Shown: positions 2,245 through 11,634 of the stretch, one piece after another | Numbering within the stretch: the first letter of the stretch is position 1 | How the letters are laid out: every line of letters begins with the position of its first letter | Source: Spirochaetia bacterium | Lineage (GTDB): Bacteria; Spirochaetota; Spirochaetia; CAKZLE01 | Direction of reading: 5' to 3' | Length of the DNA stretch: 64,000 nucleotides | NCBI GenBank assembly: GCA_963677595.1 | Contig: OY782041.1 | Coordinates: forward strand, 1,888,001-1,952,000 | The notes under the pieces: generated by a model | What the model was told of the DNA's origin: nothing | What the model saw: only the letters and a program-made list of their open reading frames with translations | The model's database searches: none | Translations under genes and position numbers: made by a program

Positions 2245-3579
2245 CTAGAGGGATGCTCCGTTCACATAGAGGGTGAACCCGTTCTCATCGACACTCCCTG
2301 CCCCATCGAGCGAGGTGATATAGGAATCCCCGGTCAAGACCCAGGTACTGGACCCGTCGATGGATACTGCCACACTACCAGCCTGGCCATCTGCATTGAT
2401 CGCCCCGGTGTAGGTCGTCCCATCCTCCAGTGCCAGCTCGAGGGTGGAGATCTCATCCACAATGATCTCCCCGCTAAGCTCCTGGCTTGCTGCCGTGAAG
2501 GTGACATCCCCGCCGTTGGCACCGGCTGTGCCCCAGCCCCGTGCACTCTCATTGCCGACTGCCTTGAGGAGCACTTCGTTGCTGAGTGAGAGGTCTACAT
2601 CCGTAAGCTCGATCGTGCAGGCGGTATTCGTCACATAGATCATGTCCCCGCTGTTGGAGACCAGGCTGCCGCCGGTCATGGTGAAGATGCTCATCCCTTC
2701 GTCGGCATCACCTGACATGCTCTGGTAGATCATGACGTTCTGCACGTTCTCATCTGACTGGCCGCTCATTGTCCCTTCCACATCACAATCCTCGAGGATG
2801 ATCGAGTTCTTCCCTTCGATGACCAGGGCCTCAGACCCGGTCGCTGTCAGGGTCGCATTGCTGACGGTGATCTCCGCGGTACTGTAGACTGCAGGAGAGC
2901 CCTCGCCATGGCTTATGTACTCACCGCCGTCGACGGTCAGGATGCCGCCGCCTCGATCCGTCCTGAGGGCTGCTGAATGGTCCCCGTCGGTCTCGACCGA
3001 TGAGTCTGTCACATACATGGTACCGCCGCCTGCCACCATGACGCCGCCGGAGGAGTTCGCGGTAGTGGTGATATCTGTACCGTTCACATAGACAGTAGAG
3101 TCCCCGTAGGAGAAGATCCCGTTTGAGCCCTCGGAAGTCGTGGTCACGACCGCGTTCTCCAGGGTCACTTCTGCACTATCCATGGCAAGGAGCCCTGCAT
3201 TGAGCCCGTAGAAGTTGCTGTCATCGCCGCTCTCCCCGGCATCCCCCGATTTCGTGATCACAATATCGGAGAGGGTCACGACTGAATCACCCTCGACGCG
3301 GACGGCATTCTCATCTGAGGAGGTGCTGGTGTATTCCACCCCTGCCGCATCTTCGGTGACGAGGTTCGCGTAATCCCCGTGATTGATCTCTCCTCCGCCG
3401 CCCCCGGGAGGGGGAGCCGGCATCGATGAGTCCAGCGTCTCCGTGGTGACGGCAGTCTCACCCTCCGTGATACTGTCGGTAGCCGTTCCTGAGGTGGTGC
3501 TGGTACAGGCAGTGACTGCCAGCAGCAGCATCCCGGTAAGCAGGATCGCAAGGACCCTCTGTATGATCTTCTGTTTCAT
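2245..3579 (-). CDS. Acidic lipoprotein, probable right-handed beta-helix
   Basis: Signal peptide with lipobox (VTA-C), Thr/Pro/Gly linker, repetitive Gly/Asp/Thr-rich beta-strand pattern; GGAGG RBS before MKQKII. Confidence 0.7.
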   Translation of the reverse strand: MKQKIIQRVLAILLTGMLLLAVTACTSTTSGTATDSITEGETAVTTETLDSSMPAPPPGGGGGEINHGDYANLVTEDAAGVEYTSTSSDENAVRVEGDSVVTLSDIVITKSGDAGESGDDSNFYGLNAGLLAMDSAEVTLENAVVTTTSEGSNGIFSYGDSTVYVNGTDITTTANSSGGVMVAGGGTMYVTDSSVETDGDHSAALRTDRGGGILTVDGGEYISHGEGSPAVYSTAEITVSNATLTATGSEALVIEGKNSIILEDCDVEGTMSGQSDENVQNVMIYQSMSGDADEGMSIFTMTGGSLVSNSGDMIYVTNTACTIELTDVDLSLSNEVLLKAVGNESARGWGTAGANGGDVTFTAASQELSGEIIVDEISTLELALEDGTTYTGAINADGQAGSVAVSIDGSSTWVLTGDSYITSLDGAGSVDENGFTLYVNGASL

Positions 3580-3629
3580 GGTTTTCCTCCAATCTCGTTC
3601 ATCTGATATACACATCATGGACCATGCAG

Positions 3630-3645
3630 CTTAACCGAACCTTAA
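3630..3645 (-). promoter_or_regulatory. OmpR-type direct-repeat box, copy 1
   Basis: Minus strand TTAAGGTTCGGTTAAG; matches the copies at 11459 and 11523. Confidence 0.7.
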
Positions 3646-3673
3646 ATCAAAGAAGAATATAAGAACTTTTTCT

Positions 3674-3812
3674 CTTCCGGATGCAGCACGGGGGAGCATC
3701 CCTGCTCCCCCGTATGATCATGATCGGTCTATCCCTAGGTCTGGGACCTGAAGTCCCTTCCTCCGGGGCCCATGCCACCGCTGAACCCGCTTAATGCTGT
3801 GGTTACCCCCGA
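3674..3812. repeat. Left copy of a ~135 bp direct repeat (orphan 3' end of the Cthe_2159-like gene plus terminator)
   Basis: 3681-3812 vs 8062-8193: 14 mismatches in 132 nt by manual count; minus strand reads SGVTTALSGFSGGMGPGGRDFRSQT*. Confidence 0.95.
3688..3713 (-). terminator. GC-rich hairpin, probable terminator (duplicated)
   Basis: ACGGGGGAGCA-TCCC-TGCTCCCCCGT. Confidence 0.7.
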
Positions 3813-3981
3813 ACATGGAGAGTCTATGGAAATCCAAGACTAAAGCTTCTTGAGTCCTGCATTGCACCAATATGATTACTACATGTAAGATATTTCCGAA
3901 ATGAGGTCGAAATACTATTTGAAGCTATGTAGACCCAGATTGTGATTACCAAGATTGTTTTTAAGAATCCGGATTTCGACG

Positions 3982-4010
3982 TTGACTTAAATCAACAACA
4001 CAAGTATGAT
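3982..4010 (+). promoter_or_regulatory. Sigma70 promoter of the Abi gene
   Basis: TTGACT-17 bp-TATGAT. Confidence 0.8.
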
Positions 4011-4016
4011 TTAGTT

Positions 4017-4062
4017 AAGGGATTGAGCTCCGGTAACCTACGGGTCCGGGGCCAAATTTTTT
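4017..4062 (+). ncRNA. Structured leader RNA, candidate RNA antitoxin or attenuator of the Abi gene
   Basis: GCTCCGG/CCGGGGC stem, inner ACC/GGT stem with C(UACG)G tetraloop, then AAATTTTTT; GC-rich within AT-rich DNA. Confidence 0.5.
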
Positions 4063-4724
4063 ATGGGGAGCAACCTGGTGCCAGGGAAGATCTTCACTAC
4101 ACATGCTGAACAGGTTCAAATACTGACCAGCCGAGGTTTAGCCATCTCGGATCATCAAAAAGCTATTCAGATTTTATCACATGAAAATTACTATCGACTC
4201 ATAAATGGGTATAAAGATTTATTCTTAGAAGCAACTAGTCAAACAGAAACATACAAAAGCGGGTCTTCATTAACTGAAATATATGCGCTCTATCGATTCG
4301 ATGAAGAATTAAGAATACAGTTCCTTAGGGCGTTCCTCATCATCGAAAATCAATTGAAGGCTCATATTGCCTATGAATTTGCCAAAGTGCTAGCCGCGTG
4401 TGCTTACTTGGATGCTACAAATTATAATTATATTCCCCAATATCAAAATGATATAAACAAACTCATCAATAAGATTCAAATAACTATACGAGATAAAACC
4501 TCTTTTGATAGACGGTTACAGCATTACCAGAATAATCATCATGGAGCCATTCCTCTATGGGTGATAATAAACCTGCTGACGTTTGGGAACGTGAGTCGTT
4601 TCTATAAATACATGCAACCAAGAGAGCAAAATGAAGTTGCTCGACAATTTGGATTGAGACGTGAGCATCAAACCGCATACACAGTATGCAGGGAGTTGAG
4701 AATCCTCTAACGTAACAGCGGAGG

Positions 4725-5087
4725 ATGAATATGAGACGAATAGAACCATACACGACCGCGGAGCGAGAACAGATTATCGAAGATTATCTGCAATCCGGAC
4801 TCACGGTATTCACCTACTGCAAAAGGCCGGAGGTTACCGTGACAATAACAACGCTCAAGCGTTGGATGAAAGCCCTCAACCGAGATGAGGCACATGAGGT
4901 GGCCGAGCATGGCATAGTTTGTTACCACATTGAAGGAACACAGCCAGATGAGCAGTGTCAACGGTTATCGCTTGAAGAGATGGTCCGGTTTCACCAACAG
5001 GTATATGCATGCTGCTGCACTCTGCAGGCGTTGGCCTGCACACGTGAGAATGTTACGAAAGTAACGTATCTTATGGGGGTCCTGTAA
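4725..5087 (+). CDS. tnpA: IS66 accessory protein TnpA (HTH)
   Basis: IIEDYLQSGLTVFTYCKR...TLKRW HTH pattern; first ORF inside the TIR. Confidence 0.8.
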   Translation: MNMRRIEPYTTAEREQIIEDYLQSGLTVFTYCKRPEVTVTITTLKRWMKALNRDEAHEVAEHGIVCYHIEGTQPDEQCQRLSLEEMVRFHQQVYACCCTLQALACTRENVTKVTYLMGVL

Positions 5088-5455
5088 TGGTGCCATTCGA
5101 CACATCACTGGAAGGAAAGAAGATCTTTCTACGGGTAGGCTCTACCGACTTTCGTCGGGGTGTGCGGGGCATGATCTCCCTGGTGCTGGGGGCAATGGAC
5201 CTGCCTCTGGATGAACAGTCGATCTTTGTATTCTGTTCAACGAGCAGGAAGCAGATCCGGATCGTATACAGTGAAGGAGCCGGGTGCTGGATGTGTACGA
5301 GGGTTATCCGGTATGGGCGGTACCCCTGGCCGAAAGACCGGAATGCAGCAGCCGCAATAACTGCGGATGAGCTCCGCCGACTCATAAGCGATCCAGTCTC
5401 CCTTGATCAGCTGCAGGCACGGAACCAGGTGACCAGGATAGCCCTGCATCTGTGA
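5087..5455 (+). CDS. tnpB: IS66 accessory protein TnpB
   Basis: TDFRRGVRG, IFVFCS..RKQIRIVY..G, GRYPWP; coupled to tnpA by TAATG. Confidence 0.9.
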   Translation: MVPFDTSLEGKKIFLRVGSTDFRRGVRGMISLVLGAMDLPLDEQSIFVFCSTSRKQIRIVYSEGAGCWMCTRVIRYGRYPWPKDRNAAAAITADELRRLISDPVSLDQLQARNQVTRIALHL

Positions 5456-5675
5456 CAGGAAAAAAGAACACAAAATTTTGGACGCTTCTGAACGCCTGTG
5501 GTACGAAGAAACGAGAGGGTATACACGTCTGGGATCAGCTGGGGCAAAAACAGGGCGCACCAGGGGTTCCTGCAAGGCAGACCTCTGACATTGTCCGTGT
5601 TGCAGACCTATGCAACTAGTTGCAATATAATCAATTAGGTTGTTCTTTCTGTGCAATTATGGTATGCTTGTCAGC

Positions 5676-7427
5676 ATGACAGACAAAGAACAGATTGCAT
5701 TGTTGAAGATGCAGGTCTCAGAGTTAAAGAAGGAAAAAGCCCGGTCTGAGAAAGAGCTGAAAGCTGCGAATGCACAGGTTGCAGAATTGACTGAAGATGT
5801 CGAAGTACTCACCCGTGTAGTCCGTTCAGGCAAGGAGAAGCTCCGTCTTGAGCTGTTTCTCAAGTTCGGCAGCTCAAGTGAGAAGTATCGGAAGCTGTTC
5901 AACATCCCGGTAGAACTCCTTGAGAAGCCGGAGAGTGAGCTCAATGACGAGGAGCGGCAGATTGTCGAAGAGGCAAAACAGGCTGTTGATCAGGAGCAAG
6001 AGCCGCCGCGGATGAGGAACCGACATCCGAAACACCGCAAACCCGGTATTGGCGGAGGTCGGCAGACGTTCGATCCGTCCTACCCGCGGGAGCAGCGAGA
6101 ATACCAGCTTGACAAGCTGTGCAGTATCTGCGGTGGTGAGATTCAGGAAATCGAGAATCAGGATGTACACGAACATATTGACGTCATCAAAGAACGGCTG
6201 AAGATTATTCGACAGACCAAGCACAAAGGCTATTGTACCGGTTGTGGTACGGCCTATGACGGGCAGGGAGCGAAGCGCCGGATGATCATGACTGCCAAGG
6301 CTCCTGAGCGGTTTATCCCGGGAGGTCTTGCGGGAGACCGTCTGATTGCTGCCTCTCTGGTTGACAAGTTCTTCTACGGTCTGTCAGTGACCCGAATCGC
6401 AAAACAGTTCAGACAGTTTGGTGTAGCACTCAGTGAGCAGAACTTCTCGAACTGGCACCTGCGTGCCGGTATGGAGCTTGAGCCCATCGCTACGGCCATC
6501 AAGAATGAGATTCTCAGGCAGCCTGCGATCAATGCTGACGAAACACGTCTGCAAGTACTTGATGAGAAGGATCGAGCTGATGAGCTGAAATCCTGGCTGT
6601 GGGTCATCTGCAGTGCGACACCAGATCGGCCGGCTGCCTACTTCCAATATGACCGATCCCGGTCAAGTGATGTGTTCAAGGATATCGTCGATGGATACGA
6701 CGGGTTTGTGCAGGCAGACTGCTATACAGGCTACCAGGCAGAGAAGCAACACTACCAGTATACGCTGGCTCTCTGTATCGCTCATCTTCGGAGGCGGTTC
6801 GTTGATGCACAGAAGGCAGGTGGGTACCAGAGCGGATCCGACGGCCATAGTACGCTGAATAAAATTCTTCGACTGATCGGGCAGATCTACAAAGTCGATG
6901 CTGCTCACCGCGTCCGGTGGCAGGATGAGCAGAGTATCAGTGAACAGCAGTTCCTCAACGATCGAAAAACTGATACCCTGCCGCTGTTTGAAAAACTCTC
7001 CGCCTGGATTACCGGACGGTATGATTTACATACCAATGACAGCTATATCATGGATGGCATGAACTACTACCTCAACCATGAGCAACTGTTCCAGACGTAT
7101 CTCGCATGTGCAAACCTGAATCCAGACAACTCGAGAAGTGAGCGCATTATCAGAGCATTCTCAACAGTCCGCATGAACTCCCTGTTCGCCGGTTCGGTTA
7201 CCGGTGCGAAGGCGCTGGCAACCCTGGAGAGTATCATCCAGACGGCTAATCTCTGGGACCTGGACCTGTATGGCTATATGGACTACCTGCTCAAACAGGT
7301 AACCCGTATTCGCGATCTGCCAGTACAGGCGGTAGATTTCACAACCTTCCTCCCATGGAATCTGCCGCTTGACCTGAAAGAAGAATTGGCAGTGAAAACC
7401 ATTACGGTCAAGAAGCAGCGGGAATAG
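5676..7427 (+). CDS. tnpC: IS66 DDE transposase TnpC
   Basis: Coiled coil, FGSSSEK, CxxC zinc finger, ADETRLQVL, QADCY, CIAHLRRRF, DNSRSERIIR, LPWN. Confidence 0.95.
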   Translation: MTDKEQIALLKMQVSELKKEKARSEKELKAANAQVAELTEDVEVLTRVVRSGKEKLRLELFLKFGSSSEKYRKLFNIPVELLEKPESELNDEERQIVEEAKQAVDQEQEPPRMRNRHPKHRKPGIGGGRQTFDPSYPREQREYQLDKLCSICGGEIQEIENQDVHEHIDVIKERLKIIRQTKHKGYCTGCGTAYDGQGAKRRMIMTAKAPERFIPGGLAGDRLIAASLVDKFFYGLSVTRIAKQFRQFGVALSEQNFSNWHLRAGMELEPIATAIKNEILRQPAINADETRLQVLDEKDRADELKSWLWVICSATPDRPAAYFQYDRSRSSDVFKDIVDGYDGFVQADCYTGYQAEKQHYQYTLALCIAHLRRRFVDAQKAGGYQSGSDGHSTLNKILRLIGQIYKVDAAHRVRWQDEQSISEQQFLNDRKTDTLPLFEKLSAWITGRYDLHTNDSYIMDGMNYYLNHEQLFQTYLACANLNPDNSRSERIIRAFSTVRMNSLFAGSVTGAKALATLESIIQTANLWDLDLYGYMDYLLKQVTRIRDLPVQAVDFTTFLPWNLPLDLKEELAVKTITVKKQRE

Positions 7428-8054
7428 TAGGCTCCCAGAAGATCATCACCATAGTCCCAACCATTGGTTCGTGTCCTGCTAGGTGTGGCAGGATACGGTA
7501 ATGGCTGTATCTTCACCTCGCAGATTATAGCATCTCTTTGATTGTGTCTTCAGTGTATGCGGTTTGATGCTCACATTGAGACCTAATTACCTGAATAATT
7601 ATCTAAGAATTATCACTCTTGCTAGAAATATTTGTGCACATGCTGAGCGATTCTTTAGTTTCAGATCTAATACAGAACTTAATATCTTGCCTGAGCATTC
7701 ATCATTATCTATCCCGATGCAAAACGGGAAGCCTGTCATGGGTGTTAAGGATATGTTTGCTGTACTACTTATGGTGAAATATCTTCTTAGAGATGCTGGT
7801 ATATTTGACTCTTTGAAAAGGGAAATCGCGAATTCACTAGACAAACTGGATACAGAACTCACTAGCATATCAATTCAAGAAGTCAAACAAATGATGGGAT
7901 TCCCCAGTAACTGGGAAGCAATGTAATTCCATCCGTATTGAAATAAGCTCTCACTCGCAACCAATTGATCCAGTTTGCTATCAACAAACACATTTCTTGA
8001 GTTTTCTCTTGAATAAAGCAAATAACATAATACAACATATAAAATTCATTGCCC

Positions 8055-8193
8055 CTTCCAAATGCAGTACGGGGGAGCATCCCTGCTCCCCCGTATGATC
8101 ATGATCGGACTACCCCTAGGTCTGGGACCTGAAGCCCCTCCCTCCAGGGCCCATGCCCCCGCCGAAACCGCTTGCTGCCGTGGTCACCCCGGA
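8055..8193. repeat. Right copy of the direct repeat (functional gene end plus terminator hairpin 8069-8094)
   Basis: Encodes SGVTTAASGFGGGMGPGGRGFRSQT* and the same hairpin as 3688-3713. Confidence 0.95.
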
Positions 8194-9888
8194 CTCGTTG
8201 AGCCAGGTGGTAGTCCCGGAAGCGGTGAAGGTGACGGTCTCTGACGAGTCCGTGACGATACTGTAAGCATCATCCTCATCAAGCCCCGGGAGGCTGAACA
8301 GTACTGCCTGGAACCGTGTCTCGGGGGTCACCGAGGCCAGGACGGTGCCGTCGCTGTCAATAAGCTCCACTACCGTTCCTGCAGCAAGGGTGGAGGAGTA
8401 GGTCATCTGGACCGAGTACTGGGTCGAGCTGTCTGACGGTGTCTGGATCATGCCGGTACTGCCAGCGGTGATGAGCGTTCCCCCGCTGATCTCGAAGGTC
8501 CCGTTGTAGTCGAGTGAGCCGTTCCCGCTGCCCGTAGGGCCGTAGACGGTCACCGTCCCGCCGGTCATGATGACCGAACCATTGGAGTCGAGCCCATCGC
8601 CCTCTGCGGTGACTGTCAAGGTCCCGCCGGTGATCTGGAGCAGGTAGTCCCCTGCCTCATCTGATGGCATGCCCCGGCCGAAGCTGCCGGCACTCTCCGT
8701 CCCGCCTGCGGCATTGAGCCCGTCATCGGAGGTGACCAGGTCGATGTTCCCGCCGTTGATGTAGATAGCCTGACTCTCAAGCCCCTCATACGCCTGGGCG
8801 ATGGTGATCTCCCCGTCGTTGATCACAAGGGTCTCATCTGCGTGGATCCCGTCGTCGGTGGTCACGATATAAAAGGTGCCGCCGTCGACCTGGACTGAAG
8901 TATCGCTGTGGATGGCATCATCCGAGGCGTAGATGGTCAGTTCCCCTCCTGTGATGCTTATGTCATTATTGGCTTTCAATCCCTTCTGGTCGATGGAGCT
9001 GCTGTAGGTCCCTGACCCGGTTACGATGGTGATTTCCCCGTCGGTGATGAGCATGGACCCTTCAGCCTGGAGGGCATCACCTGCTGCCTGCAGGGTGAGG
9101 GTACCGCCCTCTATCGCGATATACCCTTCTTCCCCGGCTTCCTCATTGGTTGCCTTCAGGGCATCCCCGTAGGCGGTCACTGCCACATTGCCGTCCCTGA
9201 TGACGATCGAGTCCTTCCCGACGATGCCGTCATCGGCAGAGAGGATGGTGATGTTTCCACTCATGACCGTCACGTCGTCCTTTCCCTGGATGCCGTTGTC
9301 CCGGTTCGCCGTGACAAGAAGCGAACCTGAACCTGAGATGGTCAGGTCATCTTTACTGTAGATGACAGCTGCCCCTTCCTCATTGCCTGTCCCTGAGTCA
9401 ACGTCCTGCAGGCTGTTCTCCGATCCGTCGGCAAGGTAGAGGATCACCTTGTCCGCCTGCTCCACCTCTATGGCGGCAGCACCAGTGCTCGTGATATCGA
9501 CGCCGTCGAGGATGAGGATGACATCATCCTCTGAAGTCGCGTTGACCACTACCTGGCCGTCTGAGATGGTCCCTGACAGCAGGTAGACACCTGCTTCGCT
9601 GATCTCGACTGATTCGTTATCAAGGGTGATGGTATAGTCCGCATCCGCTTCGGTATACTCTGCCAGGTCCTTCTTGCTGTAGTCGAAGACCTCCTCTGCA
9701 GAGAGGGAGGAGACTCCTTCTGCTGTCGTCACTGCAGCAGTAGTGTTGGTTGTCACAGCTGTGACCGTAGATGTCGATGAGTCCAGCTCAGGGGCTGTCT
9801 CTTTGCTGCCCAACCCGAAGATGAGGCCTGTGGTGATCATGATGAGTATGATCAGTATGGGTAAGATCTTGTTCCGTATGGTTTTCAT
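8116..9888 (-). CDS. Carbohydrate-binding domain protein (Cthe_2159-like beta-helix)
   Basis: Signal/anchor; YLLSGTISDGQVVV, IYSKDDLTISGSGSL, repeated GG..I...DDGI, DGLDSNG, LDYNG motifs. Confidence 0.85.
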   Translation of the reverse strand: MKTIRNKILPILIILIMITTGLIFGLGSKETAPELDSSTSTVTAVTTNTTAAVTTAEGVSSLSAEEVFDYSKKDLAEYTEADADYTITLDNESVEISEAGVYLLSGTISDGQVVVNATSEDDVILILDGVDITSTGAAAIEVEQADKVILYLADGSENSLQDVDSGTGNEEGAAVIYSKDDLTISGSGSLLVTANRDNGIQGKDDVTVMSGNITILSADDGIVGKDSIVIRDGNVAVTAYGDALKATNEEAGEEGYIAIEGGTLTLQAAGDALQAEGSMLITDGEITIVTGSGTYSSSIDQKGLKANNDISITGGELTIYASDDAIHSDTSVQVDGGTFYIVTTDDGIHADETLVINDGEITIAQAYEGLESQAIYINGGNIDLVTSDDGLNAAGGTESAGSFGRGMPSDEAGDYLLQITGGTLTVTAEGDGLDSNGSVIMTGGTVTVYGPTGSGNGSLDYNGTFEISGGTLITAGSTGMIQTPSDSSTQYSVQMTYSSTLAAGTVVELIDSDGTVLASVTPETRFQAVLFSLPGLDEDDAYSIVTDSSETVTFTASGTTTWLNESGVTTAASGFGGGMGPGGRGFRSQT

Positions 9889-11406: not shown

Positions 11407-11458
11407 GTTCGGCCTCCTGGTAGTTCCGGTTGAACTGACTCTAATAAACAGCTTCAAG

Positions 11459-11538
11459 CTTAAGTGAACCTTAAGAATTAACAGGTTTCTCACATTTTTC
11501 ATAATTTTTTTCCTGACATCATTTAAGGTTCGTTTAAG
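11459..11538. promoter_or_regulatory. Two divergent OmpR-type boxes
   Basis: Minus strand TTAAGGTTCACTTAAG (11459-11474); plus strand TTAAGGTTCGTTTAAG (11523-11538). Confidence 0.75.
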
Positions 11539-11634
11539 GTTGGGGGGTTAGTCTCTTCACGGAGACTGGTGTATACTGACAGGATCCTGGTTGCTGCAGG
11601 TGAAGCCTGAAGAGCCAATCCCCTTGGAGAAGTT

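Follow-up and report, generated by a model that had tools for sequence, protein, structure and literature searches.

A split Abi gene between diverged copies of a gene end in a Spirochaetia genome, and its possible arrival by a single homologous crossover

Insertions with long target duplication are inserts of less than 20 kb that lie between direct repeats of more than 30 bp and carry no other mobile element (Furuta, Abe and Kobayashi 2010, PMC2853133). Their repeats are long, variable, imperfect, and unique in the genome (25–423 bp in Table 3 of that paper, with e.g. 83 of 96 positions identical), and they often span a start or stop codon, which leaves the target gene intact. The cargo of that class consists of restriction-modification (RM) genes, and DNA breakage by those systems was suggested as the cause. 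Here, we describe a scar of this known kind, an insertion with long target duplication, with a cargo other than RM genes. Specifically, an abi gene (Abi_2/AbiD-F family) broken by an IS66 insertion sequence (IS) lies between two diverged copies of the 3' end of a Cthe_2159-family gene, in a stretch of 64,000 nucleotides (the window) from a Spirochaetia bacterium (contig OY782041.1, positions 1,888,001–1,952,000). Coordinates are those of the window unless given as genome positions.

In laboratory Escherichia coli, recircularized incoming DNA with a partial homology arm produced duplications of 109–950 bp (56 of 60 clones by PCR, 14 sequenced; PMC3240628). Both e14 in icd, with its icdC pseudogene (PMC13626634), and the cis-mobilizable elements (CIMEs; PMC5704250) have an intact gene on one side and a C-terminal pseudogene copy on the other, with differences that are largely synonymous; these involve site-specific recombination and att sites, and recombination between the copies removes the insert. 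For the cargo, the relevant system is RCd22-AbiF of Clostridioides difficile, an Abi_2 toxin with an upstream RNA antitoxin (bioRxiv 10.1101/2025.04.15.648962). A literature search for integrase-less islets returned no matching paper. Scars of this kind have been described before, but how they form had not been settled, and the question was tied to RM cargo. The genome examined here is complete and contains 16 of these cassettes; together with the codon signal pooled across them and a sister genome from which polarity can be read, it provides a test set for that mechanism.

An Abi cassette between two gene ends

The two direct repeats are 139 nt each and align without gaps, with 123 of 139 positions identical, and they occur only twice in the single-contig genome of 4,325,376 bases. 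Each consists of the final 25 codons of the Cthe_2159 gene (minus strand), its TAG stop, and 61 nt of 3' flank. One copy still ends the intact gene (the live copy), and the other is a spare, noncoding end (Table 1). Their 11 coding differences comprise 7 synonymous and 4 nonsynonymous changes, the latter in 3 codons and producing three residue changes. These counts bear out a preliminary description of the window, which had reported repeats about 89% identical over the last 25 codons of a Cthe_2159-like gene and exactly this share of synonymous differences. At the in-gene edge of the repeat, two identical bases precede the first mismatch, and later decay is possible there.

Downstream of the stop codon, the copies share an identical stretch of 40 nt, a run whose length has a chance of 0.043, which we regard as a candidate crossover region. 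It contains a hairpin that is strong in both copies (z of -2.6 and -3.9), lacks a U-run, and is not called by a terminator scan, so that the "terminator" described earlier stands as a hairpin only. A repetitive extragenic palindromic element was considered for this hairpin and rejected, as it exists in two copies only.

The insert measures 4.2 kb in total. Without the IS and one copy of its target duplication, 1,320 bp of cargo remain, with 36.9% GC compared with 54.6% for the genome, in line with the roughly 1.3 kb of AT-rich cargo first reported. IS66 is a secondary insertion that splits abi, has one identical copy elsewhere in the genome, and is the only mobile gene set of the cassette, located inside abi with its own 8-bp duplication. 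The two abi parts align end to end with 308-aa homologues, and this alignment indicates that the gene probably starts at the GTG at 4078. Because IS66 separates the RxxxxH motif from the N-terminal part, the gene is now likely dead, which qualifies the earlier description of a defense cassette.

No recombinase is found in the cassette, as previously stated, and the nearest of the genome's six tyrosine recombinases is about 299 kb away. Matches to the serine-recombinase family PF07508 number only two in the genome, both in another element. A mobile donor for the Abi gene was also sought and rejected, with all viral, plasmid, and class-genome matches being distant: the best viral match has 40% identity over the full query (55 loci), plasmid matches are all below 60% (286 records), and 7 of 400 genomes of the class match at no more than 39%. 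Closer Abi homologues (65–82%) are known only as proteins without context.

The cassette is not an assembly artifact, the first of two refutations the preliminary description had envisaged. Specifically, short-read contigs from run X1, possibly the window's own source sample, span 3702–4054 and 7545–8091 without mismatch and bridge both cargo-repeat junctions; this support covers each junction rather than the whole cassette. The contigs end at the identical stretch, and an integrated cassette or a circle plus an empty site would give the same contigs. In X1, the cargo has a depth of 29–36 and part of the host gene a depth of 49, which hints only weakly that the second strain in X1 lacks the cassette. 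A further run, X2, contains short pieces of the host genes and none of the cassette, and with no contig joining across, it gives no evidence on an empty site.

Table 1. Features of the Abi cassette and its flanks (window coordinates)
Feature	Position	Strand	Remarks
Beta-helix protein gene, 444 aa, downstream of host gene	2245..3579	-	Marks the far side of the insertion
Spare (noncoding) Cthe_2159 3' end	3674..3812	-	25 codons 3738–3812, TAG 3735–3737, 61 nt flank
Identical 40-nt stretch of both copies	3688..3727 (partner 8069–8108)	-	After the stop; contains GC-rich hairpin
Sigma-70-like promoter match, 10/12	3982..4010	+	Ahead of abi leader
Leader hairpin and U-run	4012..4062	+	z -2.0; no Rfam family
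5' part of Abi_2/AbiD-F family gene	4063..4660	+	Pfam PF07751, E 1.2e-36; PADLOC AbiD, E 9e-46
IS66 element, 2,914 bp	4661..7574	+	22-nt terminal inverted repeats; 8-bp target duplication 4653–4660 / 7575–7582
3' part of abi	7582..7926	+	PADLOC AbiD, E 1.9e-16; RxxxxH motif at 7624–7641
Live repeat copy	8055..8193	-	Cthe_2159 gene end and hairpin; protein tail equals that of the sister genome
Host gene, Cthe_2159 family, 590 aa, intact	8116..9888	-	Pfam PF14262, E 1.8e-87

Fifteen further cassettes and a sister genome

Comparison of the genome with itself yields 163 direct-repeat pairs within 45 kb, 53 of which are two-copy and no longer than 700 bp; 26 of these are at least 85% identical. Classed by hand, the 26 pairs comprise 16 gene-end duplicates around recombinase-free cargo (i.e. 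the Abi locus and 15 cassettes built like it), 6 long IS target duplications, 1 serine-recombinase element in ssb, and 3 others that are tandem, paralogous, or unexamined. The 16 gene-end repeats are 42–560 bp long and 87–98% identical, and they involve 15 unrelated host genes, including asnS, araA, and the genes for an acylphosphatase, a GDSL lipase (both ends), and an SNF2 helicase. Their cargo includes AbiE, Shango, HepT-MNT, DUF6088, sugar and sulfatase operons, and single surface-protein genes. None of the 77 cassette proteins scanned is an RM enzyme, the two largest cassettes having been scanned for part of their open reading frames (ORFs). An IS lies inside 5 of the 16 cassettes, with ends that do not coincide with the long repeats. 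No tyrosine recombinase occurs within 115 kb of 15 measured positions (a nested cassette not being separate), and the 16 junctions, inspected by eye, reveal neither a shared motif nor an IS end.

These findings lend no support to two earlier suggestions: a reduced att-type island mobilized in trans, given 15 unrelated host genes and no shared junction motif by eye, and a hotspot specific to defense genes, given cargo that extends to sugar operons and single genes. Nor is Cthe_2159 a recurrent target elsewhere: 80 distant loci were fetched, 3 without a stop in view and 7 with less than 300 bp downstream were dropped, and 0 of the 70 testable loci has a copy of the tail across the stop.

Several of these regions have further features. 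The Shango cassette (genome 4202837–4209972; L197) is flanked by a duplicated araA 3' end (188 bp, 93% identical). The GDSL lipase gene (genome 2938000–2950000; L194) has cassettes on both sides, with an AbiE pair behind and an AAA_21 pair plus an IS before, and the region also contains a nested duplicate of the 5' end of a cargo gene. The serine-recombinase element at the 5' end of ssb (genome 2879816–2891850; L192) is accompanied by a 204-bp duplicate that takes in the promoter and the first codons. At genome 942414–951601, 2026926–2039835, and 3325533–3332644, stretches of 5–11 kb lie between direct duplicates of whole genes (about 1.0–1.5 kb, 97.5–99.7%), possibly the long end of the same process. 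Finally, two DDE_Tnp_1 IS (transposases of 597 and 630 aa), which we take to be IS1634-like, make target duplications of 94–709 bp, e.g. at genome 572036–574198, 493397–495559, 785438–787600, 757087–759134, and 1576178–1578224. Duplications of 566, 576, and 709 bp among these are longer than the 514-bp maximum given in PMC2266710.

As a control, 1.2 Mb from three complete genomes of the class contain one clear and two doubtful cases, compared with 4.4 expected (P = 0.06–0.35), so that an excess special to this genome is not shown. In the clear case (G114 1036012–1047256), a 397-bp, 98.7%-identical duplicate of the 3' part of a gene surrounds a sugar ABC cassette of 10.4 kb that is AT-rich and whose ORFs, read without a Pfam scan, include no evident integrase. 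No gene-end cassettes are seen in 1.1 Mb of a draft genome (G001), whose contigs break at such repeats.

Pooled over the 16 cassettes (17 rows, with the ssb and IS rows dropped), the differences between copies number 86 synonymous and 48 nonsynonymous, giving a pN/pS of 0.17. Under a null model of duplication in which the spare copy then decays neutrally and the live copy changes only silently, this pattern has P = 1e-9, or 2e-5 without GDSL and the Abi locus. Given that the pooled differences are mostly synonymous, the copies, as a class, resemble alleles of functional genes that come from different lineages. The earlier view that both copies evolved as real gene ends thus receives support from the pooled loci, and not from the Abi locus by itself.

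Polarity was assessed with a sister genome, an ENA contig of 4,356,794 bases compared by proteins. Its Cthe_2159 protein (P0001) is 97% identical to the host protein and equals the live copy at 3 of the 3 differing residues of the Abi locus. The sister has cluster members for the DUF4956 and AAA proteins next to the locus, and none of 44 Abi matches falls on its contig. Clustering at 90% places sister proteins with 5 of the 6 other host genes, with 0 of 4 cargo proteins, and with 0 of 3 listed spare-tail ORFs. Among the 31 residues that differ between live and spare copies, the sister equals the live copy at 19 (Abi locus 3/3, SNF2 5/5, GDSL 8, and DUF454 3), the spare copy at 11 (GDSL 5/13, DUF454 4/8, araA 1/1, and DUF401 1/1), and neither at 1; spare copies also have private changes that the sister lacks. 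The live copies differ from the sister at 17 of 435 residues inside the repeats and 27 of 2,355 outside (P = 1.6e-4). The preliminary description had proposed that the cassette arrived with a related strain's tail that replaced the original. The insertion stands, whereas the replacement is not supported here, the sister matching the in-gene copy throughout; among five other loci, a foreign tail fits GDSL, DUF454, araA, and DUF401, and not SNF2.

A DNA search of 41 genomes for an empty site found matches only to the IS (G003) and to 64 bp of abi (G001). The host protein has a match in 0 of 5 genomes of the family and in 28 of 400 genomes of the class, all distant (no more than 45%), and a metagenome scan for it returned 50 loci with identities of at most 56%.

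Routes to the scar

We consider it about an even call that the IS66-broken Abi gene between its diverged gene ends came on DNA of a close relative and entered by one homologous crossover, with no integrase. We infer every step of this route. The donor fragment would consist of gene tail, hairpin, and abi, and would circularize when its ends were joined or when it looped out of a donor that had these repeats on either side of it. The circle would then integrate by a single RecA-type crossover within the 139 bp, so that a hybrid copy stands on each side. At the Abi locus, the crossover would have fallen after the stop codon, in the 40-nt identical stretch, in which case the in-gene tail is native and the spare tail is the donor's. 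The host gene would be spared only when the repeat spans the start or stop codon, which would explain why gene ends are what survives. We favor the single crossover because it needs no recombinase, allows any repeat length, supplies a second allele at once, and permits mixed polarity; i.e. variable crossover points predict that the sister will equal the spare copy at some residues and the live copy at others, as found.

A number of observations weigh against this route. At the Abi locus alone, 7 of 11 synonymous differences are compatible with duplication plus decay (P = 0.14), and the three residue changes of the spare copy resemble decay. A true IS target duplication of 298 bp has 7 mismatches, with 3 synonymous to 1 nonsynonymous, which implies that allele swapping after duplication can mimic the codon pattern; as such, the codon test does not separate copies that arrived different from copies swapped later. 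The excess of changes inside the repeats is due mostly to two loci, GDSL and DUF454, and gene ends are more variable anyway. In these same two genes, live-specific changes begin no later than codon 26 and codon 5 of the repeat, respectively, which would place both crossovers near the in-gene edge and fits att-type or one-sided exchange better. All six differences of araA from the sister outside the repeat cluster just upstream of it. In addition, the clusters contain no sister member for the beta-helix protein or for the OpuAC host protein, and no empty site, circle, or donor is seen at the DNA level (41 genomes, runs X1 and X2). The sister speaks to the empty site at the protein level only, where the host gene is present and an Abi match is not.

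Duplicated gene ends might even serve as portable, integrase-free attachment sites. Cassettes of whatever content would loop out as circles with one gene end, and RecA by itself would bring them into that gene in other strains. Defense and sugar modules would then be swapped reversibly throughout the population at many core-gene ends, with the host tail reshuffled in each round. We offer this reading tentatively and think it somewhat unlikely.

An unlikely alternative to the single crossover is that the cargo was inserted first, with an exact long target duplication made by break repair or by an IS1634-like transposase in trans, and that later recombination with empty-site strains swapped the copies. 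Resident elements lend this some credit: six of the seven copies of the two DDE_Tnp_1 IS have long target duplications (the seventh has a 215-bp pair) in a size range like that of the cassettes, and one long IS duplication has 7 mismatches though the IS is 99.8% identical to its sister copy. Moreover, IS1634 and IS1549 are reported to make repeats of 8–514 bp (PMC2266710). At the Abi locus, the live tail is equal to the sister's, and the proportion of synonymous changes fits decay. However, the cassettes end without IS ends (by eye), 5 of the 6 measured long IS duplications have 0–1 mismatches while all 16 cassettes are diverged, and a later allele swap is required at nearly every site.

Less probable is a decayed att-type island, CIME- or e14/icd-like, in which an integrase inserted an element in the gene and supplied a replacement tail, the integrase having since been lost or acting in trans. 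The geometry is that of e14, flanked by icd and the icdC pseudogene (PMC13626634), the ssb element offers one intact example in this genome, and live-specific residues start at the in-gene edge in GDSL and DUF454. On the other hand, 16 cassettes in 15 unrelated hosts have no tyrosine recombinase nearby and no shared core, only two bases are identical at the in-gene edge of the Abi locus, where the live tail also matches the sister, and divergence at the strain level leaves little time for the loss of every integrase.

A still more doubtful route is a one-sided exchange, similar to homology-facilitated illegitimate recombination (HFIR) or a replication template switch, whereby a linear donor recombines in the gene body and rejoins illegitimately inside the recipient gene, the native tail remaining downstream. 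In its favor, the six araA differences from the sister all fall in the last 150 residues before the repeat (P = 0.001, in a window chosen post hoc). The differences upstream of the Abi-locus repeat (8 of 17, P = 0.056) are weak evidence, as is the presence of a ComEC gene, also found in 10 of 14 control genomes. Against this, the usual outcome of HFIR is loss of recipient DNA, not its duplication (PMC3240628), and a foreign live tail would be expected everywhere, whereas the live tails of the Abi locus and SNF2 equal the sister at 8 of 8 sites.

Lastly, a remnant of a full tandem paralogue (the other refutation envisaged at the outset) or a two-strain assembly chimera is very improbable: X1 does contain a second strain about 94% identical, the genome has a contamination score of 6.28%, and whole-gene duplicates of about 1–1.5 kb also flank cargo in this genome, but both junctions are bridged by contigs, the spare copies have their private changes, and homology halts abruptly at codon 566, the cassette containing no further remnant of Cthe_2159.

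Leader copies, neighboring genes, and known systems

The abi leader hairpin is a candidate cis attenuator and antitoxin RNA, and an intact abi would have worked like AbiF, i.e. as an RNase toxin restrained by the upstream leader RNA. The promoter scan found 6 sites versus 6.1 expected in shuffles, and support for the promoter comes from its position and its conservation in an orphan copy only. That orphan copy (88%) of promoter, leader hairpin, and U-run lies between two convergent genes at genome 2150306–2150385 (L007:1501–1580), with no abi behind, and could be a stand-alone antitoxin RNA. More contigs of run X1 carry the abi leader in other contexts. Among 300 genomes searched, only one other (G101) has a match to the leader, ahead of an internally deleted and decayed abi (L181:295–600, G101:C378); there, leader and remnant are preceded by a short repeated element that is also present in L182.

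Around the cassette, the host gene comes after VTC-domain and DUF4956 genes. One gene past the cassette, an AAA_14/DUF4143 gene (955–2214) matches the candidate system PDC-S01 in PADLOC (E 5e-92). A short motif is common to 3630–3647, ahead of the beta-helix gene, and to 11455–11474 and 11521–11542, between the VTC operon and two-component genes; these are probably response-regulator boxes.

The 16-site set shows that the scar does not depend on RM cargo and that defense genes (Abi, AbiE, Shango, and HepT-MNT) can come and go without an integrase, in which case island finders keyed to integrases would miss them. Within this set, few cases are more diverged or less informative than the Abi locus, where the Abi gene is also broken.

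Compared with RCd22-AbiF, the locus has a similar layout, in which promoter, structured leader, and U-run are followed by an Abi_2 gene with the RxxxxH motif. It differs in that the leader, conserved elsewhere, is a hairpin distinct from the abiF RNA motif RF03085, an Rfam search of 3500–8300 (E up to 1) giving no match to it, that motif included, and in that abi is split by IS66. In contrast to IS1634-type duplications, no IS ends abut the repeats of the Abi cassette (by eye). The intact gene on one side and C-terminal copy on the other are shared with e14/icd and the CIMEs, from which the locus differs in having no recombinase or att core found. Duplication of a homologous arm without a recombinase is likewise the outcome of single-crossover insertion in PMC3240628; that work concerns conjugation with an identical arm, whereas the Abi locus is a natural scar whose route we reconstruct.

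The closest match is the insertion with long target duplication. The cargo sets the locus apart from the class in PMC2853133, being Abi_2/AbiD here and toxin–antitoxin pairs, Shango, sugar operons, or single genes at the other sites, and the screen used there would exclude the Abi cassette for its transposase. The general geometry is matched, although the RM subclass is not: the repeat exceeds 30 bp and exists in two copies only, the insert is below 20 kb with no mobility gene save the IS66 within abi, and the repeat spans the stop codon of a Cthe_2159 gene that is still intact.

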